From: Auanema rhodensis
Lineage: Eukaryota > Animalia > Nematoda
NCBI GenBank assembly: GCA_964057225.1
Contig: OZ059895.1
Span: 12,710,001-12,774,000, forward strand
Direction: 5' to 3'
Length of the DNA: 64,000 bases
Under the pieces are notes generated by a model, which worked only from the letters and a program-made list of their open reading frames with translations, was not told the origin of the DNA and made no database searches. The position numbers and the translations under genes were made by a program. Shown in pieces: positions 1 to 56,140 of the stretch; position 1 is the stretch's first letter; each line of letters opens with the position of its first letter.

Positions 1-420
1 TGGAGTTGCGAGGAATGTAGAGAGTGTGACGTTGGCGAGAGAGGAGGTCATTTTGAGTAAGAAAAGTGTTATTGAATTTTTCTCTATCAAAATTTTCTCT
101 TTATATAGTTTGTTTTTCAGTGATTGTTACAATTTGTTAAAATTAAAGGATAGAAATTAGAATTTCGGTGGTTTTTGATCTATGTCTTATGTTTAATGTA
201 CTATACGAAAGAAAGAAAAATTATTTTTACAATTCTACGATTTTTGTTAGTTAATTAAAAATTTCGTACTTGTTCTCCTTTGTTTTGCGTTGGAGATTTA
301 TTCTGCTGCTTTTTGCTTTGATCCGCTTTTCCATGTAGTTCCAATTCTCCATTACTTCTGATTTCTTCGTCTTGTGTTTTTCTTTTGGGTTGTAGTTTAA
401 CATGATACGGGCGTGAGTTT

Positions 421-3400
421 TCATTTCCTATTCCTAGTGCTGCGGCAAGTGTTCCAATTTTTGATTGCTGGTGAGTTTTTGTTTCTGTCCTCAAATAGCT
501 CCTTTCTGTTTTCATTCTTGAATTGATCTCGTAGCTTTTCGTATGTTTTTGCGTTATTATCTTCTATATCGTTTTGATTAGGACCTTCTTCTTGAGAGAA
601 AGGTGTCAGCTGTCTGAGGTCCTCTTGAATTCTGTCGATTGTTGTTGATTCATCTTCTAATTGTATATTAGAATTTGTTATTCTTCTTGCTGTAGCAAGG
701 TCGTCAGGTGTTTCTGAATTATGTTCAATTTCTTCTTCGTTTACTCCTCTGTTATTCCCTGTGATAGGTAACAGTTGCGCGAGAGTATCTGGACTGCCTG
801 TTGGGTAACAGTTGTTGTTATTTTCCGTATTATTGGTTTGTTCCCATTCATCCAGATTATTCCAACTTGTTTCTTCTTCTTCTTCTTCGTTTGCTATGTC
901 TTGGTCCTCTTCTTCCTCTTCTTCATTATTTCTTGTTGATATAAGATTATCGTCTGGTGGAAAATAACGTATGTTATTTTTGTGAGCTTTTATAATATTT
1001 TCATCTTGATCCGTTATGCTGATGTTGTTTCCTTCAATTGTCACTATCCGGTATGGTCCATCTCTTCGTATTTGTAATTTGTTGCTTGGGTTCGCTCTTT
1101 GTACAAATACTCGATCTCCTATATCTAATATTCTTTCTTTTGTCCTATGTGCTTGATCGTATTTCTGCTTCATTCTTTTTTCATTGGTGGCAATCTTTTC
1201 CTTGACTTTTTCTTGAATATCTCTTAAGTTTTTGAGCTGATCCGTGATATTTTGTTCTTCCGGTGTTTCCAAGTTTTTGTCAATGGGTAGACGTGCTACT
1301 TGTCCAAACAAACATTCGTATGGTGATGTTTTAGTGGTGGCGTTTGGTAATCTGTTGAGTGTAAAAATAATCTTCGGAAGTATTTTATCCCAATCGTTTT
1401 GTTCGTCATTAACGTAGGCTGTTAATGCTTCTTCGATCGTCCGATGCAATCTTTCTACTTGTCCGTTAGCGTTTTTGTAATACGGCATAGTAGTGTGGTG
1501 TGTAGTTCCAAAATTACTGCACATAGTAGTGAAATCGTTTGAAATAAAATTAGATCCATTGTCTGTGATGATAGTGACAGGTGGTCCAAAAACATAGAAA
1601 AGATATTTTTCGATAGCTGATATAATTTCTTCTGATGTTTGTCTGATTAGCGGAATTGCGATTATCCATTTTGAAAAAGAATCTTGAATTGAAAGAACAT
1701 ATCTGTTTTCTTGTTCTGTCCTAGGTAATGGTCCGAGTATATCCATGTGTACTCTTTGCCATGGTTTTGTTGATGTTGGAAAATTTTTCATTGGTTCCAC
1801 CGTTGCTTCGTGAGGGTTGTTCTTTCTTTTCGCACAAGCAAGACATCTGTTGATGTAGTTTGTAATGTCTTCTTGCATTCCAGTCCATGTAAATCGTCTT
1901 GATATTGAGTCCATTGTTTTGTTTATTCCTAGATGAGCTCCGAGTGTCGGATCTTCATGAAATTTCTTCATAATTGGATTAATTATGTGCTCTTCTCGTG
2001 GTAAAATTGTTCGTGGTACTTGTAGGCTTCTCTTTGGTTTTGAGTATAGTACATCGTTGTACACAATATATCTGTCCGTCAGTTGTCGTCCAGCTGTGTT
2101 ATTCTTTATTTTATCCATAGTTTCTTTTATCCAATTTGATTGATTCTGAACTGATCGAATATCTGCTATCGTGAAGGTGTTTATCTGATGAATAGTATCT
2201 TCCGTCGTTTTTCTTTCGTTTTTCTTCTTTGCTGGTGGTTTTGCTTCGTTGATTTCATCTTCAAAATATCGTGATAATGCGTCACATACACTGTTTAATT
2301 TTCCTGGTCTGTAGATAATTTCAATATCGTATTCTTGTAAAACAATTTGAAATTTTGCTAAACGATCTATTAAATCCTTTCTAGTCATTAAACTAGTAAG
2401 TGGTCTATGATCCGTGATAATTTTGGTTGCTGTTCCTAGTATGTAGGTGCGAAATTGTTTGACGGCGAATGTAAGAGCTAATGCTTCTACTTCTATTGGT
2501 GGATAATTCCTTTCAGCTTTGTTGAGTTTCCGACTAGCAAAAGCTATTGGATGTAATGGTTCTTGATCGTCTTTCGCTTGAAGTAGCACAGCGCCAACTG
2601 CTATCATACTTCCATCACTTTCAATAACATATGGTCGCTTCGGGATTGGTGCTTGTAACACAGGTGCTTGAGTCAATGTTTTCTTCAAAGTATTAAAAGC
2701 AATTTCTTCTTCTTCTGTCCATTTGAACGGAGTGTCTTTCCGAGTGAGGTTGTAGAGTGGTGTTGCTATTCCTGCAGCGTTCTTTATGAACCTTCTGAAG
2801 TAGTTTACTACTCCCATGAAAGCTCTTACTCCTGTTGTTGATTTTGGTTGGGGATAATCTTGTATTGCCTTAATTTTATGTGGGTCCGGTTTAATTCCTT
2901 CTTGTCCAACTATGTATCCTAGAAATTTTACTTCCTTTCTTGCGAATGCGCATTTCTTCAGTTTTATTTTGAATCCTATTTGAGTTACTGCTTCCAAAAC
3001 TTCTTCAATATCTTTTAAATGTGCTGTCGTAGATTCAGAGATTAACAGTAAATCATCTAGATATACGAATAGCTTGCATTTAACCATTGATTGCATGTAT
3101 CGTACTGCGTTTTGAAAAGTATGGGGTGATCCACATAATCCCATCGGCATTCGACAATATTGATAAGTTCCACTTGTTGTTGTGAAAGCTGTAAGATGAC
3201 GATCTTCTTTCTTAAGAGGTATTTGGAAAAATCCAGATACTAAATCAAAGTTGCTGAAGATCCTTGCTCCAGCGGCCAAATCTAGGATGTCCTGTATGTT
3301 TGATATGACATATACTTGTTTCTGAGTGATTGCATTCAGAGCTCGAAAGTCCGTTACAAATCTATAAGTTTTGTCTTTCTTCTTCACCAAAATTACTGGA

Positions 3401-6400
3401 CTAGTTGTCATTGAGTTTGATGGTTCAATGATTCTTTGTTGTAGCATTTCTTCTATTTGTTTCTCCACTTCTTCTTGTTGGGAGAGTGGTATACGATAAG
3501 TAATTTTGAATGATGGTGTTTTTCCTGGCATGATTGGAATGGAGTGTTCAATTGGTCCTAGGAAGAGTCCGATATTTCTATCTTTGTTGAGAAACGCTTG
3601 TTTATGTAGTAAAATTATTTCTTTCAGTTGCTGTTGTTCGATTTGTGAGAAGCAGGCTTCTGAAAGGTCAAGCTCATTGATGAAATTGTCTGGAAAATAT
3701 GGCAGTTGCTCTTCCCATCGAGCTTCCGGAGGTATGTATTGTCCTTCGTATTTTTCTTGGTTGTCCTTTGGTATCGCTTCTGCTATCCCTATTTCTTGGT
3801 TCATTTGAATTTCGAGTGGCTGTTTGCATATGTTCGTCGCGTAAATTTGTACTCCGTATCCAGTGGGCGTAAATATAGTAGGCGTGAAAGAGAGTTTGTT
3901 GCCTGGTTTCTTACAATCTAGAAACGCCTGTTCATAGCTTTCTGGATCGTGTACTTCTAGCGTGAGCGTTCTTGTTTCTCCTGGTCTTAGCGTTTTGTTT
4001 TCTAAGCTAACCACATATGCTTTTGTGGTCTGGTGTTCCCACGGAGATGTTTCTCGTGCTAGTGGAACATGTGTTGTGCCGATAACAATTGTTTTATCCA
4101 GCGGTCGAAGTGAGGTGTAAATTCCTTGTTGATGTAATGCTTCCATGAAGTCTATTCCAAGTAACACTGGTGCTGGACAGTAGTTATCTTCTGCTACATA
4201 AAATTTGTGTTCTGTTTCTGTTGTTCCTATTGTTATGAGGATCCTTGTGTATCCCATAAATGAGAATTTAGATTTATTCGCGACTATCGCTGTTGTTTGT
4301 TTTAGTACCATCGTTGCAGCGGGCAGTTGTTTGAAGGTGGATTCTCGCATGTATGATGCTGATGCTCCCGTGTCCCATAGTGCCTTAAAGATGTGATTGT
4401 GGATTGAAATCGGGACAAACGGTAATTGTGATCCTCCTATGTAATTTATGTTTTCTTTCTTCATGCTTGTAGGGAAATAAGCTTCATAAATGTGTTCAGG
4501 AATTGGTGCTGAAGGATCATACAATGTGAGTTGACAGCTGTTGTGATGGTTGTCGACGTATGGAGCAGACGGAGAAGGATGAGATGTTTCTGTTCTTGTG
4601 TTCTCAGTTGATAGTGGTTGTAAGTATTCTGTTTCCCATTTGACATTGTTGATGGGTATCCTTGAACTACATGCGTATATTTTTATTATCCAGGTGGCGA
4701 GTGTGATTATGCCAATTGTTATGATGATTGATCCAATGATAGCAAGTACGCGTAGTGTCCAGGTTTGAATCTTTTCCCATATTGGTGACAGAAAGTCAAA
4801 CATTTTCCAAGTTATAGCTTCTTTTGTATGTTCGTAGCTGAGTAGTAAGCTGCTGGCTGCTCCTGCTGTTAGGGTAACAGGGTTCATGTTAGGAATTAAT
4901 CTTTGTTTGATTACAGGTTTTATTCTTCCTGGTAAAGTAGCCTGTAGCGTTGCTAAGCTGGATCCATATGATATTGCTAGTGCCATAGGAAACGTTGATT
5001 CTGTTAGATTGTTGAAAATGTTGCTTCCATTAAACTTGATATGTTCTAGGTTGATTGATCCTAACTCGTCGATGTATGCTGGTGATGTTACATTTATTGA
5101 TTGGTTATTATTAGTCCATTGATCGTTTTCTTTCCAGGGATCCTTGATTGTGAATCCGCATGGTATGGCATGTGCCATCGGTGTGAGGTCTCTTGTACCT
5201 GGTAGGATGAACAGTTGGCCGTGATGTTCCGTTTCGACTGGGGTTTCCAGAAAACACGTGCTGTTGACTTTGTGATCACGGTATGTTTTTGTAATTTGAA
5301 TTGGTGTGCATGGCATTACATAAATTAGTTTATCATTTATGAATCTTGCAGATATATCCTGTCGTCGTAGCATTGTACGCATCCCTATAGTAGGATTTAT
5401 TTGAAGAATAGCCCACCAGGTAAGTAGTTGTTTATTTTGTACGTGGCAGATGTTGTTTCTGTTTGTTGTGAACGTACGTATGATATCATCTTCCAGATTG
5501 GTAGTGGCATATTGTAGATGAGATTGCGTTTCTTGTTGATGAAGATGTTCATTCCATTTTTGGACGATATCGTTCTTAGCTTTAAGGTAGTCTACGTGAG
5601 CTTTCTTACCAATATGTGATGATATTTCTTCAGGTGTGCTGCGAGTGGTAGTGATAGATCTTTTTGTAGTTCTTGGAGGCGGTGACTTGGTGAGTGATTC
5701 TTTCCTATTGTATTCCTGGCTTGAGGTGATTGTGATTGGGTTTGTAGTAATATTGAATGTAGATTGGGGGGTGGAGAATGATTGTGTTGGTCGATGAGTG
5801 GTGAATATAGTTGTGGTTGTTGTAGGTGTTGTGGTTGTTGTTGATCTGGGTCTAGCAGTAGTAGAAGTAGTAGTAGTAGTAGTGGTAGTAGTAGTAGTAG
5901 TTGATGAAGACGTGGGTATTGTTGGTTTGGGTCTAGTTGTTGTGGATATATGTGTTTTGGGTGTGATTGTCGAAGTGATGACGTTCCTTATGGTTGTAGG
6001 CTTAGGGGTCGTGGTAGTGGTTGTAGTAGTAGTTTGTAGGGGGGTCGAAGTGCTTCTAATTGTGGTTGCAAAAGGTCGTGTTCCGGGAGTACTGATAAGG
6101 GGTAGATAATGATTATAAAATTTTTCACTATCCTCTTGTGTAATGCTATAATTTGTAGGATTTCTTTTCCGGAAGCCGTAGAATATATCGTCGCCATCGA
6201 AGATAACTGTGTAGTTTGGCAGTTGTAATGGTGGTAAGTTCAGTTCTTTTTCATATTTGATCCATTTCTTCATTTCTGCTTCGTATTCTTCTTTTGAATG
6301 TAGCTTCTTCGGATTATTTATTGCGTTCAGGATAATTTTTGCTTGTGCTAGTTGTTCGTACAGTTCTAAATCGTTTCGTGTCTTGGTGAGTCTTGGTTTT

Positions 6401-9400
6401 CTTGGTGGCATGAGTTGATATAAGTATTCTTCTAAAGATGGTGTTGTTTCTCCTGTAGCTAACGTAGTAGGTATTTCCGCAAGTGAGTAAGCAATTTCTT
6501 TCGCGATTTCATAGTAGTCTCCTGTTTTGGTTGGTAGTATCTTCTTTAAATCCTTAATTGTGATCCGTTTGCTAAGTTTATGCGTAAGTTCCTTATACGA
6601 TAGATTATCGATCGCGATTTTTGTTGCTTCTCTTATTTCTGCTTCTCCTAGGGCGTGTAGAATGGCTATGTTGACGTCTTCATATTTGTGCCATATAAGA
6701 CGATTTTTGATAACATCAAAATTTATACCTAGGTATTTGAAGATTGCGATATACTTAGGTAACATATTTGTTATGTTATTGAGATTGTAATGGATGTCAA
6801 GTCTTTTCCGTTGAATATAGGTTGTATATAGTAGAATAGTTCCGGTTTTGCTGGCTGAATATCTTAGCGAGGGGTATTGATGAACTGTCAAGAATCCTTT
6901 AGGGTATTCCGTGATTGCGTGTCTTCTTGATCGTCCTAAGCTTGAGGTTGAGTTGAAGGAGATTAGAGTTCCACTATTTGTAGTAAATATATCTTTTTGT
7001 AAGCATGAGGAGGCTTCTTTTTCCGGTGTTTTATTGTTTAGAATAAAAGCACTTTGAATTCCGGGAATCAATATGGTGTCTTCTGATATAAAAACTTCGT
7101 GAGAGCCTAATGAAGTGTACGAGCAACTATGTTTTTCTGATGGTGGGGTCCATATGATGAGAGCGTTGTTGGTTAGGCATTGTCCTTTGTCACTGGTGCA
7201 TCCGTTGTCGTTTATGAATATATCTGAGAGTACTGTATTGTCTTGTAGGCTGGTCATGTGTCCTCGTTCAGCTATGAATCTGGTACGTTGTTCGCATTCC
7301 TGTTTCCATATACCATTAGTAATGGTTGTCTCTGGGAATGGAGTTCCATAGAGTCCTGGTGCTTCTCTTTGAAGGTTGGTACCGTTGAATATTCTTTCTT
7401 TAATAGCTGACGAACATTCTTGCAGTGTTGTTGGTGAAACTTTTGCTAGTGAGACATTAGTTTCTCTGATGAAGAAAACGTCGTGAATGCAGAGTTGGTA
7501 AGTTTCAATTGCACATTTCCATGCTTCCCATTCTTTTGGTTGTAGGTTTTGGATGAACAATTCTGCTGTTGTCTTCTGGATATGGTTATTAGTTGGTGCG
7601 GTGGATCGGCAAGCTGTTGGAGATGGCGGCTCGACATATATTCCTCCTCTGTTTCCTGTGCATAACTGGTACGTTGTTTCTGCACTGCATGTGTTTATAA
7701 TGAGTGCGATAATTGTGATAAAAAGGGGTAGGAATGGTGTTGATTTTCTTTTGTTGTTCGGTACTTCGTTTTCCGTGACGTTGTTGACTTGAAAACGTAC
7801 TCCTGGGCTCTGTGTGCGTTCTCTATACCGTTCCGGTCCATTGGAGGTGCTGCGCGGGCGACTTCTATAATTGTTGTATTGGCTTCGATTGTATTGAGAG
7901 GGGTATTGTTCGTGATTATTTGATTGTCGCCGGTTGTTGTGTCCGCTATAGTTTTGGTCGCGGTTTCGATAGTATGGTCTTTCTTGGCTTCTGTTCCGTG
8001 ATCTGTCGAAGTAGTTTTGTCTTGATCCCTTATTTTGAGAGAATCGTGAGTTATGGTTCCTGTATTGGTGTTGATGAGGCCGATATTGGTTGTTGTATCT
8101 GTCCGGATATCGGTTGTGTGGTTTGCCATTGCCATTATACATCGGTTTGGTTCCTTTGAAATCCTTAGATTCGTTTCTCTGGTATTGATTGTTGTCCTTC
8201 GAGTCTCGAATGTTGAGGTTGTTGAACGACTTCTCTATATTGTTGACAAACGATGTTGGTCTATTTTGTATAAAGAGTTCTTCTCGTAAGGCCATTTCGT
8301 AAGCTTCCTCAAAGTTTGGTGGGTCTAGACGGCTAACATGTTCGCTTATTTCGGGTCTTAGTCCCCAAGTGAAGGTGGATCGGAGCATGTTAAGCTCACT
8401 TTCGTTGTTCATGTCCATAGCCGAGTAGGCTTCGTTAGAACATCTTGTTGCAAAGCTTTGTACCGATTCCGTTGGTAACTGTTTCAAGCCATGTAGGCGG
8501 TGCATTGCTCGTTCTCTCTGTTTTTTCGGTGTGATCATTTCTGAGAGTCGCTTCTTGACATGGTCCCATCCGAGTCGCTTATCTTCGGTTGTGAGTTTTC
8601 TGTACGCTTCTCTTGCTCGATCATCTTCTAGCAATAATTGTATGCTTTGAAGACGTTCGGGCATAGTTGTTCTTGTAGCGTTGAAGTGTTCATCTAGGTA
8701 TAGTAGATAGCGGTTGAATGGTGTTTTTCCATCGTAGCGTGGAGCTTTTATATCGCGTATGGCGGACGGAATCGCTGCTGGTTGAGGGATGATTGTAGGT
8801 GTTGGAACAGGTGCCCTTCCCGAGGTTTGCGTAAGTGGTGCGCCTTCGTCCATTGGGTCCATTCTTGGGTTAATTCTCTTGTTTTCTGCAACAAAAGTAT
8901 TTGCTTGATTAGTTTGCGATGGAAGAGACGGAGATAGAGAATGCCCGGATGTAGAATGATCAATGGATGAAGGTGAGTTTCGTAGAGGTGGGGATGAGCT
9001 TACTGCGGGTGTGGTTGAAGAAAGTGCGGGCGTAGGTGATTTTTGTGTGGTTGGTGTATTGCTTCTTCTAGGGGTGGCTATTAAAGGATTGATTGGGTTG
9101 ATTGTATTTGGTATGGTGTTGGTTGGGGGGTTTTGAGGGTTCCCTTTGCTTGCTATGTTTTTAGGAATAGGTTTAATGTTTGGGATAATTTTCTTTTCTA
9201 AGGTGTTTCTTTCGACTATGTCTGTTTTTTGTTTCTTCGTTTTTTCATGTGATTTGGGATTGGTGAATTGTTTTTGAATGCCGCGATGTCTTGGGGTATG
9301 TATTACCATTGACTTTGTTTTAATGCTTAACTTCGCTTGTTTTGCAGAGGGGGGAGAATATGTTGCGGGCGGTTGTCTTTTTCTTCTTATAATATTTGAA

Positions 9401-9447
9401 GTGGCAGCAGGGTCCAGCAGAGGTTTTGGACCAGTATTGGGCAGCAT
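421..9447 (-). CDS. Gag-Env-Pol polyprotein (~3008 aa from the first ATG at 9447; the ORF track starts at TTG 9492)
   Basis: Gag capsid-like region (APRYDGK...LKQLPTESVQSF...LRSTFTWGL); signal peptide 7740-7681; gB-like ectodomain; TM 4749-4684; protease ALWDTGAS (D at 4374-4372); RT FDLVSGFFQI, MPMGL, YLDD (3063-3052); RNase H ESDGS/IAFASRKL/TDH/DALSR; integrase HHCC, HMDILGP/ITDNGSNF/NGQVERLH, GPY. No stop or frameshift. Confidence 0.95.
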   Translation of the reverse strand: MLPNTGPKPLLDPAATSNIIRRKRQPPATYSPPSAKQAKLSIKTKSMVIHTPRHRGIQKQFTNPKSHEKTKKQKTDIVERNTLEKKIIPNIKPIPKNIASKGNPQNPPTNTIPNTINPINPLIATPRRSNTPTTQKSPTPALSSTTPAVSSSPPLRNSPSSIDHSTSGHSLSPSLPSQTNQANTFVAENKRINPRMDPMDEGAPLTQTSGRAPVPTPTIIPQPAAIPSAIRDIKAPRYDGKTPFNRYLLYLDEHFNATRTTMPERLQSIQLLLEDDRAREAYRKLTTEDKRLGWDHVKKRLSEMITPKKQRERAMHRLHGLKQLPTESVQSFATRCSNEAYSAMDMNNESELNMLRSTFTWGLRPEISEHVSRLDPPNFEEAYEMALREELFIQNRPTSFVNNIEKSFNNLNIRDSKDNNQYQRNESKDFKGTKPMYNGNGKPHNRYPDRYNNQYRPHQHQYRNHNSRFSQNKGSRQNYFDRSRNRSQERPYYRNRDQNYSGHNNRRQSNNHEQYPSQYNRSQYNNYRSRPRSTSNGPERYRERTQSPGVRFQVNNVTENEVPNNKRKSTPFLPLFITIIALIINTCSAETTYQLCTGNRGGIYVEPPSPTACRSTAPTNNHIQKTTAELFIQNLQPKEWEAWKCAIETYQLCIHDVFFIRETNVSLAKVSPTTLQECSSAIKERIFNGTNLQREAPGLYGTPFPETTITNGIWKQECEQRTRFIAERGHMTSLQDNTVLSDIFINDNGCTSDKGQCLTNNALIIWTPPSEKHSCSYTSLGSHEVFISEDTILIPGIQSAFILNNKTPEKEASSCLQKDIFTTNSGTLISFNSTSSLGRSRRHAITEYPKGFLTVHQYPSLRYSASKTGTILLYTTYIQRKRLDIHYNLNNITNMLPKYIAIFKYLGINFDVIKNRLIWHKYEDVNIAILHALGEAEIREATKIAIDNLSYKELTHKLSKRITIKDLKKILPTKTGDYYEIAKEIAYSLAEIPTTLATGETTPSLEEYLYQLMPPRKPRLTKTRNDLELYEQLAQAKIILNAINNPKKLHSKEEYEAEMKKWIKYEKELNLPPLQLPNYTVIFDGDDIFYGFRKRNPTNYSITQEDSEKFYNHYLPLISTPGTRPFATTIRSTSTPLQTTTTTTTTTPKPTTIRNVITSTITPKTHISTTTRPKPTIPTSSSTTTTTTTTTTTTSTTARPRSTTTTTPTTTTTIFTTHRPTQSFSTPQSTFNITTNPITITSSQEYNRKESLTKSPPPRTTKRSITTTRSTPEEISSHIGKKAHVDYLKAKNDIVQKWNEHLHQQETQSHLQYATTNLEDDIIRTFTTNRNNICHVQNKQLLTWWAILQINPTIGMRTMLRRQDISARFINDKLIYVMPCTPIQITKTYRDHKVNSTCFLETPVETEHHGQLFILPGTRDLTPMAHAIPCGFTIKDPWKENDQWTNNNQSINVTSPAYIDELGSINLEHIKFNGSNIFNNLTESTFPMALAISYGSSLATLQATLPGRIKPVIKQRLIPNMNPVTLTAGAASSLLLSYEHTKEAITWKMFDFLSPIWEKIQTWTLRVLAIIGSIIITIGIITLATWIIKIYACSSRIPINNVKWETEYLQPLSTENTRTETSHPSPSAPYVDNHHNSCQLTLYDPSAPIPEHIYEAYFPTSMKKENINYIGGSQLPFVPISIHNHIFKALWDTGASASYMRESTFKQLPAATMVLKQTTAIVANKSKFSFMGYTRILITIGTTETEHKFYVAEDNYCPAPVLLGIDFMEALHQQGIYTSLRPLDKTIVIGTTHVPLARETSPWEHQTTKAYVVSLENKTLRPGETRTLTLEVHDPESYEQAFLDCKKPGNKLSFTPTIFTPTGYGVQIYATNICKQPLEIQMNQEIGIAEAIPKDNQEKYEGQYIPPEARWEEQLPYFPDNFINELDLSEACFSQIEQQQLKEIILLHKQAFLNKDRNIGLFLGPIEHSIPIMPGKTPSFKITYRIPLSQQEEVEKQIEEMLQQRIIEPSNSMTTSPVILVKKKDKTYRFVTDFRALNAITQKQVYVISNIQDILDLAAGARIFSNFDLVSGFFQIPLKKEDRHLTAFTTTSGTYQYCRMPMGLCGSPHTFQNAVRYMQSMVKCKLFVYLDDLLLISESTTAHLKDIEEVLEAVTQIGFKIKLKKCAFARKEVKFLGYIVGQEGIKPDPHKIKAIQDYPQPKSTTGVRAFMGVVNYFRRFIKNAAGIATPLYNLTRKDTPFKWTEEEEIAFNTLKKTLTQAPVLQAPIPKRPYVIESDGSMIAVGAVLLQAKDDQEPLHPIAFASRKLNKAERNYPPIEVEALALTFAVKQFRTYILGTATKIITDHRPLTSLMTRKDLIDRLAKFQIVLQEYDIEIIYRPGKLNSVCDALSRYFEDEINEAKPPAKKKNERKTTEDTIHQINTFTIADIRSVQNQSNWIKETMDKIKNNTAGRQLTDRYIVYNDVLYSKPKRSLQVPRTILPREEHIINPIMKKFHEDPTLGAHLGINKTMDSISRRFTWTGMQEDITNYINRCLACAKRKNNPHEATVEPMKNFPTSTKPWQRVHMDILGPLPRTEQENRYVLSIQDSFSKWIIAIPLIRQTSEEIISAIEKYLFYVFGPPVTIITDNGSNFISNDFTTMCSNFGTTHHTTMPYYKNANGQVERLHRTIEEALTAYVNDEQNDWDKILPKIIFTLNRLPNATTKTSPYECLFGQVARLPIDKNLETPEEQNITDQLKNLRDIQEKVKEKIATNEKRMKQKYDQAHRTKERILDIGDRVFVQRANPSNKLQIRRDGPYRIVTIEGNNISITDQDENIIKAHKNNIRYFPPDDNLISTRNNEEEEEEDQDIANEEEEEETSWNNLDEWEQTNNTENNNNCYPTGSPDTLAQLLPITGNNRGVNEEEIEHNSETPDDLATARRITNSNIQLEDESTTIDRIQEDLRQLTPFSQEEGPNQNDIEDNNAKTYEKLRDQFKNENRKELFEDRNKNSPAIKNWNTCRSTRNRK
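950..4440 (-). other. Pol region of element A (PR, spacer, RT, RNase H, integrase)
   Basis: Catalytic motifs DTG, YLDD, RNase H acidic residues and integrase DDE occur in Ty3/gypsy order. Boundaries are approximate. Confidence 0.93.
4684..7740 (-). other. Envelope glycoprotein domain of element A, herpesvirus gB-like class III fusogen
   Basis: Signal PFLPLFITIIALIINTCSA|ETTYQLC; YQLC..GG....PPSPTAC resembles the gB N-terminal FYVCPPPTGATVV..PRRC; furin site RSRR at 6933-6922; HLQY..ICHVQN..WWAILQINP..ISARF..PC (5520-5299) resembles gB RLQF..WCELQN..LWNEARKLNP..VSARML..TC; many N-x-S/T sequons; C-terminal TM helix. Confidence 0.85.
5640..6070 (-). repeat. Thr-rich mucin-like low-complexity segment within Env (ACT/ACA/ACC codon runs; (GTA)n on + strand)
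   Basis: TTTTTTTTTPKP..SSSTTTTTTTTTTTTSTT in the ORF; gtagtagtagta runs around 5856-5900. Confidence 0.9.
7741..9447 (-). other. Gag region of element A: basic Pro/Ser/Thr-rich N-terminus, capsid domain (~8750-8250), Arg/Asn/Tyr/Gln-rich NC-like tail
   Basis: Capsid C-terminal segment aligns by eye with element B (LRSTFTWGL..PPNFEEAYEMALREE vs LRSTFLRGL..PKTFAEAIDNARWEE). No CCHC knuckle is present. Confidence 0.85.
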
Positions 9448-10682
9448 CGTTGGTATCCTGTAAGGAAATTTGTTATATCCAACGTGTGCCAAAATAATTT
9501 TATATATAGAAAAACGTGAAGAATAATGTTGGGTTTGTGTGCGCGATTCTTATGAAGGTAGCTAGTCTTGCAAGTAATCTCTTTACCAATATAGCTCGTC
9601 CGGGTCTAACACAGGTTTGAAACTAGTGTGCCTTTTCGAAGGGACAAGTTCTATATTGTGAAAAAGGCATGAAATGAAAGTTAATAGTTCGCCAGTCTTT
9701 TGGGACAAGGATACAAAAATAGAATTTTTCGCAATCATTTCATTTTCCCAGACCTCATTAACCTATCTGAGTCACAGGTATGTCAGCTGCCTTCTGCATC
9801 CTGCTCCCTGACTCTATGATGGCGAGACCACTCTTATTATTTGTATCAATGTGGGGCAGATTTTAATTCAAAAATTCTCTAATTATTTCATGGGGCGTAC
9901 GTCTTATCCTGAGTGTCGGCCTCCGCTCGAGTCTCTTGAGTGTCTGGCATTATTCTTAACGAGGGGGGGGATGGTTTTTGCGTATGAGTTAAAACTTATT
10001 GATTAATTTAATTATTTTTCGTTTTTTCAGGTGCTAAGGTAATCGGAATTTGGATACGCTGCGCCTAATAAATATTTTTACTGTCGTGTTTAACACGGGA
10101 TTTCTTGTTTATGAAATTACGGGGGGGGGAAGGGGTGGGTTTATGAGAATACAGTGTAGTAGCATAAGAATAATAGTTTTATAAACGAACATAAAGAAAA
10201 TAATGAAAATATGGTATGATAGGATGATTAAGATAGTATGATAAGATGAAGATTCAGATAATATGATAAGATGATTAAGATTGAGAGGTATAGAAGCAAT
10301 ATTCTTTTTTATTTCTTAATTCTAAATTAATTTTATAAAGAACTTAACTATTTTTGTTCAAAAATGTGAAAATAAACTTATAATTCTTAGAAAAGTTAAT
10401 TATTGAATTTGAATAATTTTCGTATATAGGATTTTGGATAGAGAGAATGATAAATGATATAAGTACTCTTATGAATAATTGAAAATGATTTATGAGAATA
10501 TAATGAATGGAAAACTGAGTTTTTGTAAATAGTTTTTGGATATAATTTTTAATAGAAAAGTTTTAGAGTTTTTAAGAAAATATTATAAGCTAACTTTAAG
10601 AGAGAGATAAGATTTTTAATTGAATAAGAGATGTAGACGGTAGCGCTTGAGTTCCTTTACGAGATCCTGTCCAAAAGGAAGG

Positions 10683-10700
10683 ATCTCGGTGGAACCTCCA
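10683..10700 (-). promoter_or_regulatory. Primer binding site complementary to the tRNA-Gln 3' end
   Basis: The + strand reads ATCTCGGTGGAACCTCCA, the conserved 3' 18 nt (including CCA) of metazoan tRNA-Gln as I recall it, directly adjacent to the LTR. Confidence 0.9.
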
Positions 10701-10829
10701 CGTTCCATTTAGATTCTCAATGGTTCCAAGTTGAGAGATCCAAACAGACTATGAGAAGATGAGTATGATTTTAAATATAAGTGTGTAATGTAAGGTGAAA
10801 TAAGAAACAAAAGATGAAATGTATAAAGG

Positions 10830-10835
10830 TTTATT
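10830..10835 (-). terminator. LTR polyadenylation signal AATAAA (element A)
   Basis: + strand tttatt, ~130 bp from the U5 end; the same offset is seen in element B. Confidence 0.6.
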
Positions 10836-10955
10836 GTTCGCATTATAATATAATTATACCAAGATTAAAGCTAGAGTTAAGAAAGAGAATATAAAGAAGA
10901 TAAAGAGAAAGTAAGATAATGAGATAATGAGATGCCTGAGTCTTGAGGACTCAGG

Positions 10956-10963
10956 TTTATATA
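10956..10963 (-). promoter_or_regulatory. LTR TATA box (TATATAAA)
   Basis: + strand tttatata, ~155 bp inside the LTR start and upstream of the polyA signal. Confidence 0.65.
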
Positions 10964-11206
10964 TCCATACAACTCCTACTCAGTTTACACAAATTGTTAC
11001 AAAGCTTATAAAAAGTGCATCTAGAATATTCTCAGAATTGCTTAAAAACTATCTGCATTAGTTTAATAATAGCAGCTGCCATGGTCAGCTGCTTTCCTTT
11101 GAGATATGTATGTAACATAACGTAGAAAATTACATAACTAACATGAAATTGGAAAAAAAACAATAACGAGGATAAGTATGTAAATCATTGAATATCAGGT
11201 ATTTTC

Positions 11207-11325
11207 GCTTACGACCATACCACGTTGAAAGTACGCCATCCCGTCCGATCTGGCAAGTGAAGCAACGTTGGGCCCGGTTAGTACTTGGATCGGAGACGGC
11301 TTGGGAATCCCGGGTGCCGTAAGCT
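11207..11325 (+). rRNA. 5S rRNA: First 5S rRNA gene (variant C53G)
   Basis: Full-length 5S; AAGTGAAGC in place of the array consensus AAGTCAAGC at 11259. Confidence 0.95.
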
Positions 11326-11339
11326 TTTCAAATTTTTTT
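11325..11339 (+). terminator. Pol III terminator (T4 then T7), repeated in every full unit
   Basis: GCTTTTCAAATTTTTTT directly after the 5S 3' end. Confidence 0.9.
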
Positions 11340-11340
11340 A

Positions 11341-11369
11341 ACGATCATACCACGTTGAAAGTACGCCAT
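11341..11369 (+). pseudogene. 29-bp duplicate of 5S nt 5-33 (one mismatch) downstream of the terminator, in every full unit
   Basis: ACGATCATACCACGTTGAAAGTACGCCAT vs gene ACGACCATACCACGTTGAAAGTACGCCAT, 130 bp apart. Confidence 0.92.
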
Positions 11370-11734
11370 GCAGCTGATTTTCAATTTTATCTCTTCAGTA
11401 ACAAATGTTTTTAATTTTCCAGCAGTTTTACTTAGATAGCTCAACCCAAGGCATCAAAATATCTTCAATCTTATTTCTATATTACAGTTATAAACCAGTA
11501 GTTTATGAACCTTCATCTTAACTTTACTGTTTCTATCTATTTCCTATTGAAACAAACATTGTTTTAACACTATACAACTGTGAAACCTTTTTTAATTTAT
11601 TGTATTTGGAGCTCATAAGATTTGATATCATCGAGGAATTTAGATGTAACGTAGAAAATTACATAACTAACATGAAATTGAAAAAAAACAATAACGAGGA
11701 TAAGTATGTAAATCATTGAATATCAGATTTTTTC

Positions 11735-11767
11735 GCTTACGACCATACCACGTTGAAAGTACGCCAT
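11735..11767 (+). pseudogene. Truncated 5S (nt 1-33 only), first of 15 copies
   Basis: GCTTACGACC...CGCCAT joined directly to GCAGCTG spacer. Starts at 11735, 12133, 15705, 16632, 17560, 21132, 23646, 25631, 29732, 31717, 33174, 34631, 42437, 45481, 53815. Confidence 0.95.
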
Positions 11768-13060
11768 GCAGCTGATTTTCAATTTTATCTCTTCCGTAAC
11801 AAATGTTTTTAATTTTCCAGCAGTTTTACTTAGATAGCTCAACCCAAGGCATCAAAATATCTTCAATCTTATTTCTATATTACAGTTATAAACCAGTAGT
11901 TTATGAACCTTCATCTTAACTTTACTGTTTCTATCTATTTCCTATTGAAACAAACATTGTTTTAACACTATACAACTGTGAAACCTTTTTTAATTTATTG
12001 TATTTGGAGCTCATAAGATTTGATATCATCGAGGAATTTAGATGTAACGTAGAAAATTACATAACTAACATGAAATTGAAAAAAAACAATAACGAGGATA
12101 AGTATGTAAATCATTGAATATCAGATTTTTTCGCTTACGACCATACCACGTTGAAAGTACGCCATGCAGCTGATTTTCAATTTTATCTCTTCCGTAACAA
12201 ATGTTTTTAATTTTCCAGCAGTTTTACTTAGATAGCTCAACCCAAGGCATCAAAATATCTTCAATCTTATTTCTATATTACAGTTATAAACCAGTAGTTT
12301 ATGAACCTTCATCTTAACTTTACTGTTTCTATCTATTTCCTATTGGAACAAACATTGTTTTAACACTATACAACTGTGAAACCTTTTTTAATTTATTGTA
12401 TTTGGAGCTCATAAGATTTGATATCATCGAGGAATTTAGATGTAACGTAGAAAATTACATAACTAACATGAAATTGGAAAAAAAACAATAACGAGGATAA
12501 GTATGTAAATCATTGAATATCAGGTATTTTCGCTTACGACCATACCACGTTGAAAGTACGCCATCCCGTCCGATCTGGCAAGTCAAGCAACGTTGGGCCC
12601 GGTTAGTACTTGGATCGGAGACGGCTTGGGAATCCCGGGTGCCGTAAGCTTTTCAAATTTTTTTAACGATCATACCACGTTGAAAGTACGCCATGCAGCT
12701 GATTTTCAATTTTATCTCTTCAGTAACAAATGTTTTTAATTTTCCAGCAGTTTTACTTAGATAGCTCAACCCAAGGCATCAAAATATCTTCAATCTTATT
12801 TCTATATTACAGTTATAAACCAGTAGTTTATGAACCTTCATCTTAACTTTACTGTTTCTATCTATTTCCTATTGAAACAAACATTGTTTTAACACTATAC
12901 AACTGTGAAACCTTTTTTAATTTATTGTATTTGGAGCTCATAAGATTTGATATCATCGAGTAATTTAGATGTAACGTAGAAAATTACATAACTAACATGA
13001 AATTGGAAAAAAAACAATAACGAGGATAAGTATGTAAATCATTGAATATCAGGTATTTTC

Positions 13061-13179
13061 GCTTACGACCATACCACGTTGAAAGTACGCCATCCCGTCC
13101 GATCTGGCAAGTCAAGCAACGTTGGGCCCGGTTAGTACTTGGATCGGAGACGGCTTGGGAATCCCGGGTGCCGTAAGCT
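13061..13179 (+). rRNA. 5S rRNA: Representative consensus 5S rRNA gene
   Basis: 5' GCTTACG pairs with 3' CGTAAGC (helix I); internal control region AGTCAAGCAACG...GTACTTGGATCGGAG. Confidence 0.98.
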
Positions 13180-16100
13180 TTTCAAATTTTTTTAACGATC
13201 ATACCACGTTGAAAGTACGCCATGCAGCTGATTTTCAATTTTATCTCTTCAGTAACAAATGTTTTTAATTTTCCAGCAGTTTTACTTAGATAGCTCAACC
13301 CAAGGCATCAAAATATCTTCAATCTTATTTCTATATTACAGTTATAAACCAGTAGTTTATGAACCTTCATCTTAACTTTACTGTTTCTATCTATTTCCTA
13401 TTGAAACAAACATTGTTTTAACACTATACAACTGTGAAACCTTTTTTAATTTATTGTATTTGGAGCTCATAAGATTTGATATCATCGAGGAATTTAGATG
13501 TAACGTAGAAAATTACATAACTAACATGAAATTGGAAAAAAAACAATAACGAGGATAAGTATGTAAATCATTGAATATCAGGTATTTTCGCTTACGACCA
13601 TACCACGTTGAAAGTACGCCATCCCGTCCGATCTGGCAAGTCAAGCAACGTTGGGCCCGGTTAGTACTTGGATCGGAGACGGCTTGGGAATCCCGGGTGC
13701 CGTAAGCTTTTCAAATTTTTTTAACGATCATACCACGTTGAAAGTACGCCATGCAGCTGATTTTCAATTTTATCTCTTCAGTAACAAATGTTTTTAATTT
13801 TCCAGCAGTTTTACTTAGATAGCTCAACCCAAGGCATCAAAATATCTTCAATCTTATTTCTATATTACAGTTATAAACCAGTAGTTTATGAACCTTCATC
13901 TTAACTTTACTGTTTCTATCTATTTCCTATTGAAACAAACATTGTTTTAACACTATACAACTGTGAAACCTTTTTTAATTTATTGTATTTGGAGCTCATA
14001 AGATTTGATATCATCGAGGAATTTAGATGTAACGTAGAAAATTACATAACTAACATGAAATTGGAAAAAAAACAATAACGAGGATAAGTATGTAAATCAT
14101 TGAATATCAGATTTTTTCGCTTACGACCATACCACGTTGAAAGTACGCCATCCCGTCCGATCTGGCAAGTCAAGCAACGTTGGGCCCGGTTAGTACTTGG
14201 ATCGAAGACGGCTTGGGAATCCCGGGTGCCGTAAGCTTTTCAAATTTTTTTAACGATCATACCACGTTGAAAGTACGCCATGCAGCTGATTTTCAATTTT
14301 ATCTCTTCAGTAACAAATGTTTTTAATTTTCCAGCAGTTTTACTTAGATAGCTCAACCCAAGGCATCAAAATATCTTCAATCTTATTTCTATATTACAGT
14401 TATAAACCAGTAGTTTATGAACCTTCATCTTAACTTTACTGTTTCTATCTATTTCCTATTGAAACAAACATTGTTTTAACACTATACAACTGTGAAACCT
14501 TTTTTAATTTATTGTATTTGGAGCTCATAAGATTTGATATCATCGAGGAATTTAGATGTAACGTAGAAAATTACATAACTAACATGAAATTGGAAAAAAA
14601 ACAATAACGAGGATAAGTATGTAAATCATTGAATATCAGGTATTTTCGCTTACGACCATACCACGTTGAAAGTACGCCATCCCGTCCGATCTGGCAAGTC
14701 AAGCAACGTTGGGCCCGGTTAGTACTTGGATCGGAGACGGCTTGGGAATCCCGGGTGCCGTAAGCTTTTCAAATTTTTTTAACGATCATACCACGTTGAA
14801 AGTACGCCATGCAGCTGATTTTCAATTTTATCTCTTCAGTAACAAATGTTTTTAATTTTCCAGCAGTTTTACTTAGATAGCTCAACCCAAGGCATCAAAA
14901 TATCTTCAATCTTATTTCTATGTTACAGTTATAAACCAGTAGTTTATGAACCTTCATCTTAACTTTACTGTTTCTATCTATTTCCTATTGAAACAAACAT
15001 TGTTTTAACACTATACAACTGTGAAACCTTTTTTAATTTATTGTATTTGGAGCTCATAAGATTTGATATCATCGAGGAATTTAGATGTAACGTAGAAAAT
15101 TACATAACTAACATGAAATTGGAAAAAAAACAATAACGAGGATAAGTATGTAAATCATTGAATATCAGGTATTTTCGCTTACGACCATACCACGTTGAAA
15201 GTACGCCATCCCGTCCGATCTGGCAAGTCAAGCAACGTTGGGCCCGGTTAGTACTTGGATCGGAGACGGCTTGGGAATCCCGGGTGCCGTAAGCTTTTCA
15301 ATTTTTTTTAACGATCATACCACGTTGAAAGTACGCAATGCAGCTGATTTTCAATTTTATCTCTTCCGTAACAAATGTTTTTAATTTTCCAGCAGTTTTA
15401 CTTAGATAGCTCAACCCAAGGCATCAAAATATCTTCAATCTTATTTCTATATTACAGTTATAAACCAGTAGTTTATGAACCTTCATCTTAACTTTACTGT
15501 TTCTATCTATTTCCTATTGAAACAAACATTGTTTAAACACTATACAACTGTGAAACCTTTTTTAATTTATTGTATTTGGAGCTCATAAGATTTGATATCA
15601 TCGAGGAATTTAGATGTAACGTAGAAAATTACATAACTAACATGAAATTGAAAAAAAACAATAACGAGGATAAGTATGTAAATCATTGAATATCAGATTT
15701 TTTCGCTTACGACCATACCACGTTGAAAGTACGCCATGCAGCTGATTTTCAATTTTATCTCTTCAGTAACAAATGTTTTTAATTTTCCAGCAGTTTTACT
15801 TAGATAGCTCAACCCAAGGCATCAAAATATCTTCAATCTTATTTCTATATTACAGTTATAAACCAGTAGTTTATGAACCTTCATCTTAACTTTACTGTTT
15901 CTATCTATTTCCTATTGAAACAAACATTGTTTTAACACTATACAACTGTGAAACCTTTTTTAATTTATTGTATTTGGAGCTCATAAGATTTGATATCATC
16001 GAGGAATTTAGATGTAACGTAGAAAATTACATAACTAACATGAAATTGGAAAAAAAACAATAACGAGGATAAGTATGTAAATCATTGAATATCAGATTTT

Positions 16101-19100
16101 TTCGCTTACGACCATACCACGTTGAAAGTACGCCATCCCGTCCGATCTGGCAAGTCAAGCAACGTTGGGCCCGGTTAGTACTTGGATCGGAGACGGCTTG
16201 GGAATCCCGGGTGCCGTAAGCTTTTCAAATTTTTTTAACGATCATACCACGTTGAAAGTACGCCATGCAGCTGATTTTCAATTTTATCTCTTCAGTAACA
16301 AATGTTTTTAATTTTCCAGCAGTTTTACTTAGATAGCTCAACCCAAGGCATCAAAATATCTTCAATCTTATTTCTATATTACAGTTATAAACCAGTAGTT
16401 TATGAACCTTCATCTTAACTTTACTGTTTCTATCTATTTCCTATTGAAACAAACATTGTTTTAACACTATACAACTGTGAAACCTTTTTTAATTTATTGT
16501 ATTTGGAGCTCATAAGATTTGATATCATCGAGGAATTTAGATGTAACGTAGAAAATTACATAACTAACATGAAATTGAAAAAAAACAATAACGAGGATAA
16601 GTATGTAAATCATTGAATATCAGATTTTTTCGCTTACGACCATACCACGTTGAAAGTACGCCATGCAGCTGATTTTCAATTTTATCTCTTCCGTAACAAA
16701 TGTTTTTAATTTTCCAGCAGTTTTACTTAGATAGCTCAACCCAAGGCATCAAAATATCTTCAATCTTATTTCTATATTACAGTTATAAACCAGTAGTTTA
16801 TGAACCTTCATCTTAACTTTACTGTTTCTATCTATTTCCTATTGGAACAAACATTGTTTTAACACTATACAACTGTGAAACCTTTTTTAATTTATTGTAT
16901 TTGGAGCTCATAAGATTTGATATCATCGAGGAATTTAGATGTAACGTAGAAAATTACATAACTAACATGAAATTGGAAAAAAAAACAATAACGAGGATAA
17001 GTATGTAAATCATTGAATATCAGGTATTTTCGCTTACGACCATACCACGTTGAAAGTACGCCATCCCGTCCGATCTGGCAAGTCAAGCAACGTTGGGCCC
17101 GGTTAGTACTTGGATCGGAGACGGCTTGGGAATCCCGGGTGCCGTAAGCTTTTCAAATTTTTTTAACGATCATACCACGTTGAAAGTACGCCATGCAGCT
17201 GATTTTCAATTTTATCTCTTCAGTAACAAATGTTTTTAATTTTCCAGCAGTTTTACTTAGATAGCTCAACCCAAGGCATCAAAATATCTTCAATCTTATT
17301 TCTATATTACAGTTATAAACCAGTAGTTTATGAACCTTCATCTTAACTTTACTGTTTCTATCTATTTCCTATTGAAACAAACATTGTTTTAACACTATAC
17401 AACTGTGAAACCTTTTTTAATTTATTGTATTTGGAGCTCATAAGATTTGATATCATCGAGGAATTTAGATGTAACGTAGAAAATTACATAACTAACATGA
17501 AATTGAAAAAAAACAATAACGAGGATAAGTATGTAAATCATTGAATATCAGATTTTTTCGCTTACGACCATACCACGTTGAAAGTACGCCATGCAGCTGA
17601 TTTTCAATTTTATCTCTTCCGTAACAAATGTTTTTAATTTTCCAGCAGTTTTACTTAGATAGCTCAACCCAAGGCATCAAAATATCTTCAATCTTATTTC
17701 TATATTACAGTTATAAACCAGTAGTTTATGAACCTTCATCTTAACTTTACTGTTTCTATCTATTTCCTATTGGAACAAACATTGTTTTAACACTATACAA
17801 CTGTGAAACCTTTTTTAATTTATTGTATTTGGAGCTCATAAGATTTGATATCATCGAGGAATTTAGATGTAACGTAGAAAATTACATAACTAACATGAAA
17901 TTGGAAAAAAAACAATAACGAGGATAAGTATGTAAATCATTGAATATCAGGTATTTTCGCTTACGACCATACCACGTTGAAAGTACGCCATCCCGTCCGA
18001 TCTGGCAAGTCAAGCAACGTTGGGCCCGGTTAGTACTTGGATCGGAGACGGCTTGGGAATCCCGGGTGCCGTAAGCTTTTCAAATTTTTTTAACGATCAT
18101 ACCACGTTGAAAGTACGCCATGCAGCTGATTTTCAATTTTATCTCTTCAGTAACAAATGTTTTTAATTTTCCAGCAGTTTTACTTAGATAGCTCAACCCA
18201 AGGCATCAAAATATCTTCAATCTTATTTCTATATTACAGTTATAAACCAGTAGTTTATGAACCTTCATCTTAACTTTACTGTTTCTATCTATTTCCTATT
18301 GAAACAAACATTGTTTTAACACTATACAACTGTGAAACCTTTTTTAATTTATTGTATTTGGAGCTCATAAGATTTGATATCATCGAGGAATTTAGATGTA
18401 ACGTAGAAAATTACATAACTAACATGAAATTGGAAAAAAAACAATAACGAGGATAAGTATGTAAATCATTGAATATCAGGTATTTTCGCTTACGACCATA
18501 CCACGTTGAAAGTACGCCATCCCGTCCGATCTGGCAAGTCAAGCAACGTTGGGCCCGGTTAGTACTTGGATCGGAGACGGCTTGGGAATCCCGGGTGCCG
18601 TAAGCTTTTCAAATTTTTTTAACGATCATACCACGTTGAAAGTACGCCATGCAGCTGATTTTCAATTTTATCTCTTCAGTAACAAATGTTTTTAATTTTC
18701 CAGCAGTTTTACTTAGATAGCTCAACCCAAGGCATCAAAATATCTTCAATCTTATTTCTATATTACAGTTATAAACCAGTAGTTTATGAACCTTCATCTT
18801 AACTTTACTGTTTCTATCTATTTCCTATTGAAACAAACATTGTTTTAACACTATACAACTGTGAAACCTTTTTTAATTTATTGTATTTGGAGCTCATAAG
18901 ATTTGATATCATCGAGGAATTTAGATGTAACGTAGAAAATTACATAACTAACATGAAATTGGAAAAAAAACAATAACGAGGATAAGTATGTAAATCATTG
19001 AATATCAGGTATTTTCGCTTACGACCATACCACGTTGAAAGTACGCCATCCCGTCCGATCTGGCAAGTCAAGCAACGTTGGGCCCGGTTAGTACTTGGAT

Positions 19101-55100: not shown

Positions 55101-55271
55101 TAACACTATACAACTGTGAAACCTTTTTTAATTTATTGTATTTGGAGCTCATAAGATTTGATATCATCGAGGAATTTAGATGTAACGTAGAAAATTACAT
55201 AACTAACATGAAATTGGAAAAAAAACAATAACGAGGATAAGTATGTAAATCATTGAATATCAGGTATTTTC

Positions 55272-55390
55272 GCTTACGACCATACCACGTTGAAAGTACG
55301 CCATCCCGTCCGATCTGGCAAGTCAAGCAACGTTGGGCCCGGTTAGTACTTGGATCGGAGACGGCTTGGGAATCCCGGGTGCCGTAAGCT
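55272..55390 (+). rRNA. 5S rRNA: Last 5S rRNA gene before element B
   Basis: Consensus sequence. Confidence 0.97.
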
Positions 55391-55586
55391 TTTCAAATTT
55401 TTTTAACGATCATACCACGTTGAAAGTACGCCATGCAGCTGATTTTCAATTTTATCTCTTCAGTAACAAATGTTTTTAATTTTCCAGCAGTTTTACTTAG
55501 ATAGCTCAACCCAAGGCATCAAAATATCTTCAATCTTATTTCTATATTACAGTTATAAACCAGTAGTTTATGAACCTTCATCTTAA

Positions 55587-56140
55587 CGTTCCCTTATGCT
55601 CCTGCGTCGATAATATAAACCATTGTAGTTTATACTATGACGCGCATAGTATTCCTTGGTGTAGCGGTGAGGAATAAAGAGCATAAGGTCAATCATAAGA
55701 TAAAAGAGAGAAAGATTTATTAGCATGAAACTACAACAATAATATACAAAGATAAAGATACAATACAATAATATAAATATAAGTATAAAGACTAAACTAC
55801 AAGCCGTCCATGAGCTTGCTAAGAGGCGAACTCCCGACCAAGGGAACGAGGGAAGGCGGAGCCATTCCTCGGTCCTCTGGTCGTCTGGCTCTAACCCTTC
55901 AGCTACATATATGGGGAGTCCGAATGGAACGTGCCCTTTTTCAAAGATTTTTCGCGTCCGCGCGATATAAAGAGTTTTTAGTGTATATGTAGCTGAGTTT
56001 TAGAGTCTAGGAGTTTACAAATAAAATTAAAAGTTTTAAAATCTACATGTAGAAAGATATATAAATAATTTTAATAGGTTTCTTTATGGTATTAAGATAG
56101 AATTTGAATACAATAATAGGTTTTATGTTATTTTGTAACG
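55587..56140 (-). repeat. Putative 3' LTR of element B (right boundary uncertain)
   Basis: Left end CGTTCC is identical to element A's U5 end; AATAAA on - at 55716-55721; TATA-like CATATATGTAG near 55903-55913; candidate U3 start TGTAACG at 56134-56140 resembles element A's TGTAACA. No clear PPT found. Confidence 0.55.

Follow-up and report, generated by a model that had tools for sequence, protein, structure and literature searches.

Does an envelope gene that sits between gag and the protease, in one and the same reading frame, reflect an established design of a retroelement lineage, and how could such a precursor be distributed across a membrane? These questions are raised by a retroelement, here called element A, in a 64,000-nucleotide stretch of the Auanema rhodensis genome (contig OZ059895.1, positions 12,710,001 to 12,774,000; the whole stretch is referred to as the window). 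In the ORF list of the window, element A appears as a stop-free frame on the minus strand (9447-421), which encodes 3008 amino acids from its ATG and is the sole ORF of at least 300 aa within positions 1-10500. The order of domains in this frame is Gag, a signal-like segment, a gB-like fusogen, a transmembrane (TM) helix and PR-RT-RH-IN. ORF list and Pfam thereby agree with the initial annotation, which had described a single stop-free Gag-Env-Pol frame with this order.

All features of element A lie on the minus strand unless noted otherwise. Gag (7777..9447) starts with a low-complexity N-terminus, followed by the capsid, which matches Retrotrans_gag of Pfam at aa 275-364 (8625-8356; E 2e-4, below the family cut-off), and by a region rich in R, N, Q and Y. 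The latter corresponds to the NC-like region annotated before, but no CCHC knuckle was found in it on motif inspection. The ectodomain (4750..7680) contains a Glycoprotein_B match at aa 1308-1386 with an E of 5e-5, likewise below cut-off. Pfam further places an aspartyl protease at aa 1679-1769, RT at 2021-2180, RNase H at 2243-2373 and integrase at 2489-2657. With the help of motifs, these were mapped to 4132..4425 for the protease (DTG at aa 1692), 2329..3387 for RT (YLDD) plus RNase H and 1477..1983 for the integrase HHCC and DDE core. The catalytic motifs DTG, YLDD, RNase H, HHCC and DDE are all intact. C-terminal to the integrase, the protein carries an acidic low-complexity extension of ~220 aa (window 421-1100).

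A second element, B, enters the window from its other end with an ORF on the minus strand that is 5'-open at the window edge (56640..63998, 2452 aa). It follows the domain order of element A, i.e., Gag-signal-gB-TM-PR-RT-RH-IN, and its Pfam matches include Monjiviricetes_fusion with an E of 6.4e-17. The two proteins share 37% identity overall, 70% in RT and 33-34% across the two conserved stretches of env, and similarity at the DNA level is confined to RT-RH-IN (68-72%). By sequence, element B is a different family from element A, and Pfam and hydropathy bear out the earlier claim that this diverged element keeps the same order.

An envelope in this position could also result from a one-off nested insertion, or from an assembly chimera, that separated gag from pol by a viral glycoprotein. 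Self-comparison of element A revealed no repeats flanking env, and the composition of env (GC 0.39, GC3 0.335) is intermediate between gag and pol. Contigs of the DNA-type run X1 cover 2639-5804 and 6199-8604 with 0 gaps and 11 and 12 differing letters, respectively, so that another assembly crosses the two env junctions without interruption. Only two length differences are listed inside the ORF, an in-frame one of 3 letters and one of 5 letters near the stop. As the 5-letter difference was found in all four of four runs and sets the frame of the final codons apart from other copies, the very last codons may be specific to the copy of element A in the window. Beyond this locus, the identical order was found in element B and in 32 database proteins.

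The relatives comprise at least 123 database proteins from env and PR-RT-RH searches, one of which contributed its best 120 of 246 matches. The searches took proteins of at least 1654 aa, a length window that works against finding env-less relatives. Among the 125 proteins formed by A, B and the matches listed, env was matched in 39, ahead of the protease in 34 and after the integrase in five. An RT-RH tree was calculated with FastTree from 122 rows, three having been dropped for a short or missing RT. Among the matches listed, element A falls into a clade of 23 proteins with a support of 1.0, in which env is upstream of the protease in 23/23. All 18 members with names are from nematodes (Caenorhabditis, Auanema, Ancylostoma, Aphelenchus, Panagrolaimus and Meloidogyne). 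The nearest relative among these matches is an Auanema protein with 76% identity over RT-RH. Because the RT clade has env ahead of the protease throughout, element A is not a nested insertion. The junction continuity and the env-upstream database proteins refute that reading as well, nothing was found in its favor, and we regard it as hardly credible. The initial annotation had proposed a conserved lineage design and suggested an RT phylogeny as a check, which supports it.

A full-library env search returned 256 proteins at E 0.001, of which 145 were new and served as a held-out set. In these, gag precedes env in 46 and env precedes the protease in 42, the two sets overlapping, and env follows pol in 12. 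Duplications of the protease occur among the relatives: P0002 has three protease domains, and P0064 and P0065 carry a second one after the integrase.

A profile built from an alignment of these proteins to assess the type of Pol matches Ty3-G Gag-Pol best (3.6e-232), with foamy virus and MLV far lower. Together with the PR-RT-RH-IN order, this corresponds to Ty3/gypsy elements (Metaviridae). Two features of Belpaoviridae were not found in element A: env does not follow the integrase and the RT motif is YLDD, in B as well, instead of YVDN. Non-canonical nematode ERVs described by Sacco et al. in 2022 reportedly have a continuous gag-env-pro-pol ORF, and the abstract is said to tie their env to Nyamiviridae. 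The initial annotation knew of no family with this order, and in this respect, which it had set apart as bearing on novelty alone, it has to be corrected. Nematode, bryozoan and flatworm Ty3/gypsy elements that do not form one clade have been published as GAG-ENV-POL elements with an HSV/gB-type ENV (PMC13524379, Chary and Hayashi, eLife). The same paper lists 36 nematode elements in its Supplementary file 1 and names Sacco et al. 2022 (J Gen Virol 103:1739) as the source for the flipped order in nematodes. Among the matches listed of a literature search for the layout, it was the sole paper to show it. Thus, element A is an intact, catalytically complete Ty3/gypsy retroelement of this published nematode GAG-ENV-POL group and a new family within it. 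With the layout already published, its discovery value is modest.

The ends of both elements fit this assignment. The 5' LTR of element A (10701..11117, 417 bp, TG...CG) borders the spacer of a 5S gene array, and other runs confirm its bounds, with a contig terminating at 10701 and loose ends at 11118 in three of them. Its 3' LTR lies outside the window, and a purine tract of element A is known from loose ends. Element B contributes a 3' LTR on the minus strand (55587..55931, 345 bp, CG...CG) that is preceded by a purine-rich tract. LTR termini of the type TG...CA are usual, though not universal, in Ty3/gypsy elements. Neither element has them, as A reads TG...CG and B reads CG...CG, the final G of B being equally compatible with the host sequence. 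The two LTRs share GGAACG as their terminal sequence, and a purine tract that closes with GGGCA precedes each of them. In B, the terminal inverted repeat of the LTR is perfect over 6 bp. Downstream of the element A LTR follow the primer-binding site and an AT-rich 5' leader (9448..10688) with just two short ATG ORFs of 27 and 51 aa. The leader holds an acceptor-like pyrimidine-AG stretch at 9458-9470 (-) whose end is 10 nt from the ATG; the translated RNA might be trans- or cis-spliced there. The primer-binding site (10689..10700) is of the tRNA-Gln type, a 12-nt match directly behind the LTR, and its 12-mer is identical to the tRNA end that Supplementary file 1 of PMC13524379 gives for the Caenorhabditis elements Clat_4 and Ctro_1.

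Between A and B extends a 44 kb tandem array of 5S rDNA on the plus strand (11118..55586), which contains 73 full genes, identified by Rfam with 105-108 bits, in units of ~398/529 bp. The array further contains 88 fragments of ~30 nt that represent the 5' end of 5S, and no SL1-like motif was found in the one 5S unit inspected. The start of the element A LTR lies 90 bp ahead of a 5S gene, and the LTR of element B ends where the next 5S gene start would be 214 bp on. The host runs shared by both insertions end in TAAC/TTAAC on the plus strand. That two unrelated GAG-ENV-POL families abut one 5S array may reflect targeting of a Pol III locus or chance. A literature search for 5S and nematode gypsy insertion yielded no direct precedent among the matches listed, and the location provides a lead on where such elements insert.

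What is the protein between Gag and protease? The C-terminal part of the element A env alone matches PF24664 (Monjiviricetes_fusion) with an E of 1.1e-12, above the cut-off. A, B, P0001 and P0002 share 14 Cys, every one of them between signal and TM, and none of the three Cys outside this span is common to the four proteins. Sequons are kept at aa 664 in 10/24 and at aa 1395 in 13/30 relatives. As folding of env from the single sequence gave a pLDDT of 34.8, a model based on a 30-row alignment was used instead (mean pLDDT 62.7, pTM 0.36, high confidence at residues 1-240 and 690-850). With this model, 36/36 PDB matches listed by Foldseek were herpesvirus gB, the best at E 2.9e-11, at low global TM-scores of 0.17-0.26. 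In a VIA-align comparison against 48,161 chains, gB ranked first (Z 10.9; PRV gB domain IV with Z 9.5, rmsd 4.0 and 142 aligned residues), followed by Chandipura G with a Z of 8.2. The top matches in BFVD were Beihai rhabdo-like virus 3 and then the Nyavirus midwayense glycoprotein. No env relative was found in a viral contig database, and a search of the ESM Atlas gave nothing above leads scoring <0.9. The three structure searches agree with the previous description of the ~1000-aa Cys-containing middle region as a gB-type fusogen. We therefore predict that it adopts a class III (herpes gB-like) fold, from which membrane-fusion activity may be inferred.

The N-terminal env domain is followed by a furin-like site, R-S-R-R at aa 839-842 (6922..6933), and by a variable insert (5608..6843). 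The latter consists of a ~250-aa helical domain (6843-6091, model helices 277-527 of env) and a Thr/Ser-rich mucin-like stretch. The helical domain is common to B and two Auanema proteins and gave no Pfam match and no usable ESM Atlas match. Across 20 relatives, the interval from the furin site to the central helix varies from 72 to 497 aa. We consider the helical domain a candidate receptor-binding insert.

A Kyte-Doolittle scan of element A gave just two segments with a KD19 >1.8, at aa 571-589 and 1567-1585, and two segments above 1.8 were likewise obtained for the ORF of element B. This recovers both hydrophobic segments of the initial annotation, the internal signal-like one (aa 570-589, 7681..7740) and the TM helix (aa 1567-1588, 4684..4749), as called by a hydropathy scan. 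Signal peptidase prefers small residues at positions -3 and -1 of its cleavage site. Judged by this rule, C-S-A at the end of the signal-like segment (aa 589) is a likely signal-peptidase site. In the clade set, a signal-like segment is present at the Gag/Env border in 14/15 proteins, a TM helix ahead of the protease in 25/25 and a net positive charge after the TM in 22/25. A furin motif (R-x-K/R-R) after the N-terminal env domain occurs in 13/20, compared with 8/265 Pol control windows. The held-out relatives gave similar counts for signal (43/46) and TM (39/40), and 24/46 carry the furin motif.

Signal segment, TM, charge, furin motif and Cys pattern are what a threaded precursor with Gag out, Env in and Pol out predicts. 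The arrangement with Gag cytosolic, Env luminal and Pol cytosolic, as first suggested by the initial annotation, is the best reading of these data. On the basis of sequence, a single precursor probably crosses the ER membrane twice, so that the predicted gB-like fusogen would be luminal and Gag and Pol would remain cytosolic. According to this proposal, cytosolic Gag would be made first and the internal signal would then open the translocon. Signal peptidase would cut after aa 589, and the signal remnant would keep Gag anchored, similar to HCV core. The ectodomain would be glycosylated and disulfide-bonded, with furin cleavage at aa 842 occurring later. The TM would halt transfer, leaving Pol suspended from the Env tail of ~90 aa. 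Gag, Env and Pol could then collect on the same membrane at 1:1:1 and bud. Finally, the element's own protease would cut at a V/I-N-x-V/I site immediately preceding the signal, which would free Gag, and would release the Pol enzymes by cleavage at similar sites. If this model is true, Gag and Pol are both membrane-anchored at a fixed 1:1:1, unlike frameshift-controlled retroviral Gag-Pol.

Sites suited for the last step were searched for with the motif [VI][NHAD][ANSTHQ][VIL], which had been selected by visual inspection of A, B, P0001 and P0002. Element A has V-N-N-V at the end of Gag (aa 554-557) and I-N-N-V behind the TM (aa 1599-1602), and no strict match ahead of the protease. In the clade set, the motif was found before the signal in 10/14, after the TM in 10/25, before the protease in 10/25 and in the RNase H/integrase linker in 12/22 proteins, compared with 15/495 and 47/1197 (3-4%) background tiles. 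Leaving out the four seed proteins, the counts were 7/10, 7/21, 9/21 and 9/18, respectively. Held-out proteins showed it before the signal in 15/43 and before the protease in 10/39 at a background of 59/1609; after the TM it was weak (4/39, p 0.07). Since the motif also marks borders of Pol domains, we infer that it is the site of the element's own protease, and it presumably resembles the sites of the Ty3 protease. Taken together with signal and TM, these sites suggest that the signal remnant probably holds Gag at the membrane up to its cleavage, and that the Env TM does so for Pol. Their conservation allows concrete predictions for N-terminal proteomics.

Retroelements usually produce Gag in large excess. 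Most Gag or Gag-Pol might accordingly be made in another way, i.e., by an env-skipping sense splice, signal skipping or recoding. Particles would then be cytoplasmic Ty3-like capsids with Gag in excess, and the threaded precursor a minor product. Pointing in this direction, element B contains, close to the end of Gag at aa 162, a slippery heptamer accompanied by a stem of -15.8 kcal/mol, and one X1 DNA contig skips 895-8869 (a weak observation, side 21). In addition, the five Gag-Env proteins P0125, P0143, P0145, P0178 and P0266 end 46-93 aa past a clear TM without a protease; these may be fragments or relatives with Pol in a separate frame. However, element A lacks the slippery site of B; its in-phase slippery heptamers, four in number, all lie away from the Gag end and the tail. 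No sense-strand splice (CT..AC joint) was present among the 15 joints listed of 22, the sense strand has just five GT[AG]AG donors, and an RNA-type contig is unspliced across 6158-9439, contigs carrying no strand information. Since neither a slippery site at these positions nor a sense splice among those 15 joints was found, a 1:1:1 output is the default, and we judge a separate main route to Gag to be unlikely.

Alternatively, env could be a non-fusogenic passenger of an element that copies itself inside the cell, kept open just for the reading of Pol. Differences between copies, counted from 37 coding rows among the 40 listed of 97 differences and hence a small sample, comprise three synonymous and five non-synonymous ones in env and 16 and two, respectively, in pol. 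The env differences are thus not mostly synonymous, and the post-furin region is hypervariable, as might be expected of a passenger. On the other hand, the 14 Cys, sequons, furin site, signal and TM are conserved at 20-35% identity. Furthermore, the 23-protein clade has no env-less member, in a set of proteins of at least 1654 aa that is biased against env-less forms. A passenger role therefore appears very improbable to us, and a luminal fusogen within the threaded precursor remains the preferred reading.

Element A is also covered by spliced RNA of the opposite strand. Thirteen antisense introns of 41-1015 nt (3219..7545, plus strand) were derived from joints at about 3216-7545 in X12, eight of them also in X11, which run across env, the protease and the start of RT. 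X11 and X12, two samples of one study, are taken to be RNA by guess, as their GT-AG joints behave as in spliced RNA, although none of the runs listed is recorded as RNA; two DNA-type runs show 0 of the 13 joints. Cover by RNA-type contigs is absent over part of the element A leader. On the plus strand, 12/13 joints are GT..AG, and the thirteenth is too if its single additional letter represents a variant between copies. Donors read, e.g., GTAAGT, GTATGT or GTGAGT, acceptors are pyrimidine-rich, and 10/13 introns measure 41-77 nt. A protein-coding antisense gene was rejected: the longest frame within 2982 nt has 123 codons from stop to stop and 85 from an ATG, and stops occur in all three frames in 9/12 internal exons. 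Antisense GT[AG]AG donors number 32 in A, compared with 19.4 +/- 4.0 after shuffling (reached in 0/300 shuffles), and 14 in B compared with 13.0, i.e., no enrichment. The donor enrichment in A is suggestive and may reflect selection for splice sites; acceptors are not enriched, and GTAAG ranks 115 of 788 5-mers. Given that T makes up 40% of the antisense strand, the simplest interpretation is that read-through RNA from one copy or another was spliced cryptically. No direct precedent appeared among the matches listed of a literature search for spliced antisense, LTR and Caenorhabditis, and the RNA represents a lead on silencing of such elements. A more far-reaching scenario is an infectious nematode retrovirus-like agent with flavivirus-style ER assembly from one membrane-threaded precursor, release by its own protease at sites on either side of the envelope, 5S/Pol III targeting and self-regulation by an element-encoded 13-intron antisense RNA across env and protease. 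We consider this scenario quite unlikely.

How does element A compare with known systems? The polyprotein of flaviviruses and HCV (in part PMC5402940, otherwise general background) offers an analogy for the proposed topology, as its capsid ends in the envelope signal and stays anchored, and its enzymes follow the envelope TM. These are an unrelated virus group, whereas element A has a retroviral aspartic protease and a predicted class III fusogen. Herpesvirus gB and the G proteins of mononegaviruses and chuviruses (PF00606, PF24664) likewise have a class III fold with a long central helix and a mid-loop furin site. At 8-18% identity to these proteins, the version of element A is, unlike them, embedded in a retroelement polyprotein.

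Among nematode elements, Atlas virus, Cer13 and Tas belong to the Belpaoviridae (PMC9094657). Atlas encodes one Gag-Pol-Env polyprotein of 2828 aa, and the env of Tas is gB-like, as in element A. According to the same source, env comes last in this family, that of Atlas is of class II and the RT motif of nematode members is YVDN. In element A, env is central and of predicted class III, and RT is Ty3-like.

Most similar are the nematode GAG-ENV-POL 'ancient errantiviruses' of PMC13524379, which like element A combine a Ty3/gypsy Pol with an env between gag and pol and a gB-type ectodomain between signal and TM. The tRNA-Gln primer site of A recurs in 8/36 nematode rows of the supplement, with the identical 12-mer in two. 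The RT clade of A includes proteins from six species listed there, the paper's own sequences standing outside the tree. The paper describes the entry mechanism of gB-carrying elements as unknown, and its main text contains 0 matches each for 'polyprotein' and 'splic'. A testable assembly model for element A thus goes beyond this main text. Compared with the published elements, element A is a family of its own, with 76% over RT-RH to the nearest database protein, and differs by its long helical and mucin-like post-furin insert, the CG end of its LTR, its location at a 5S array and its spliced antisense RNA.
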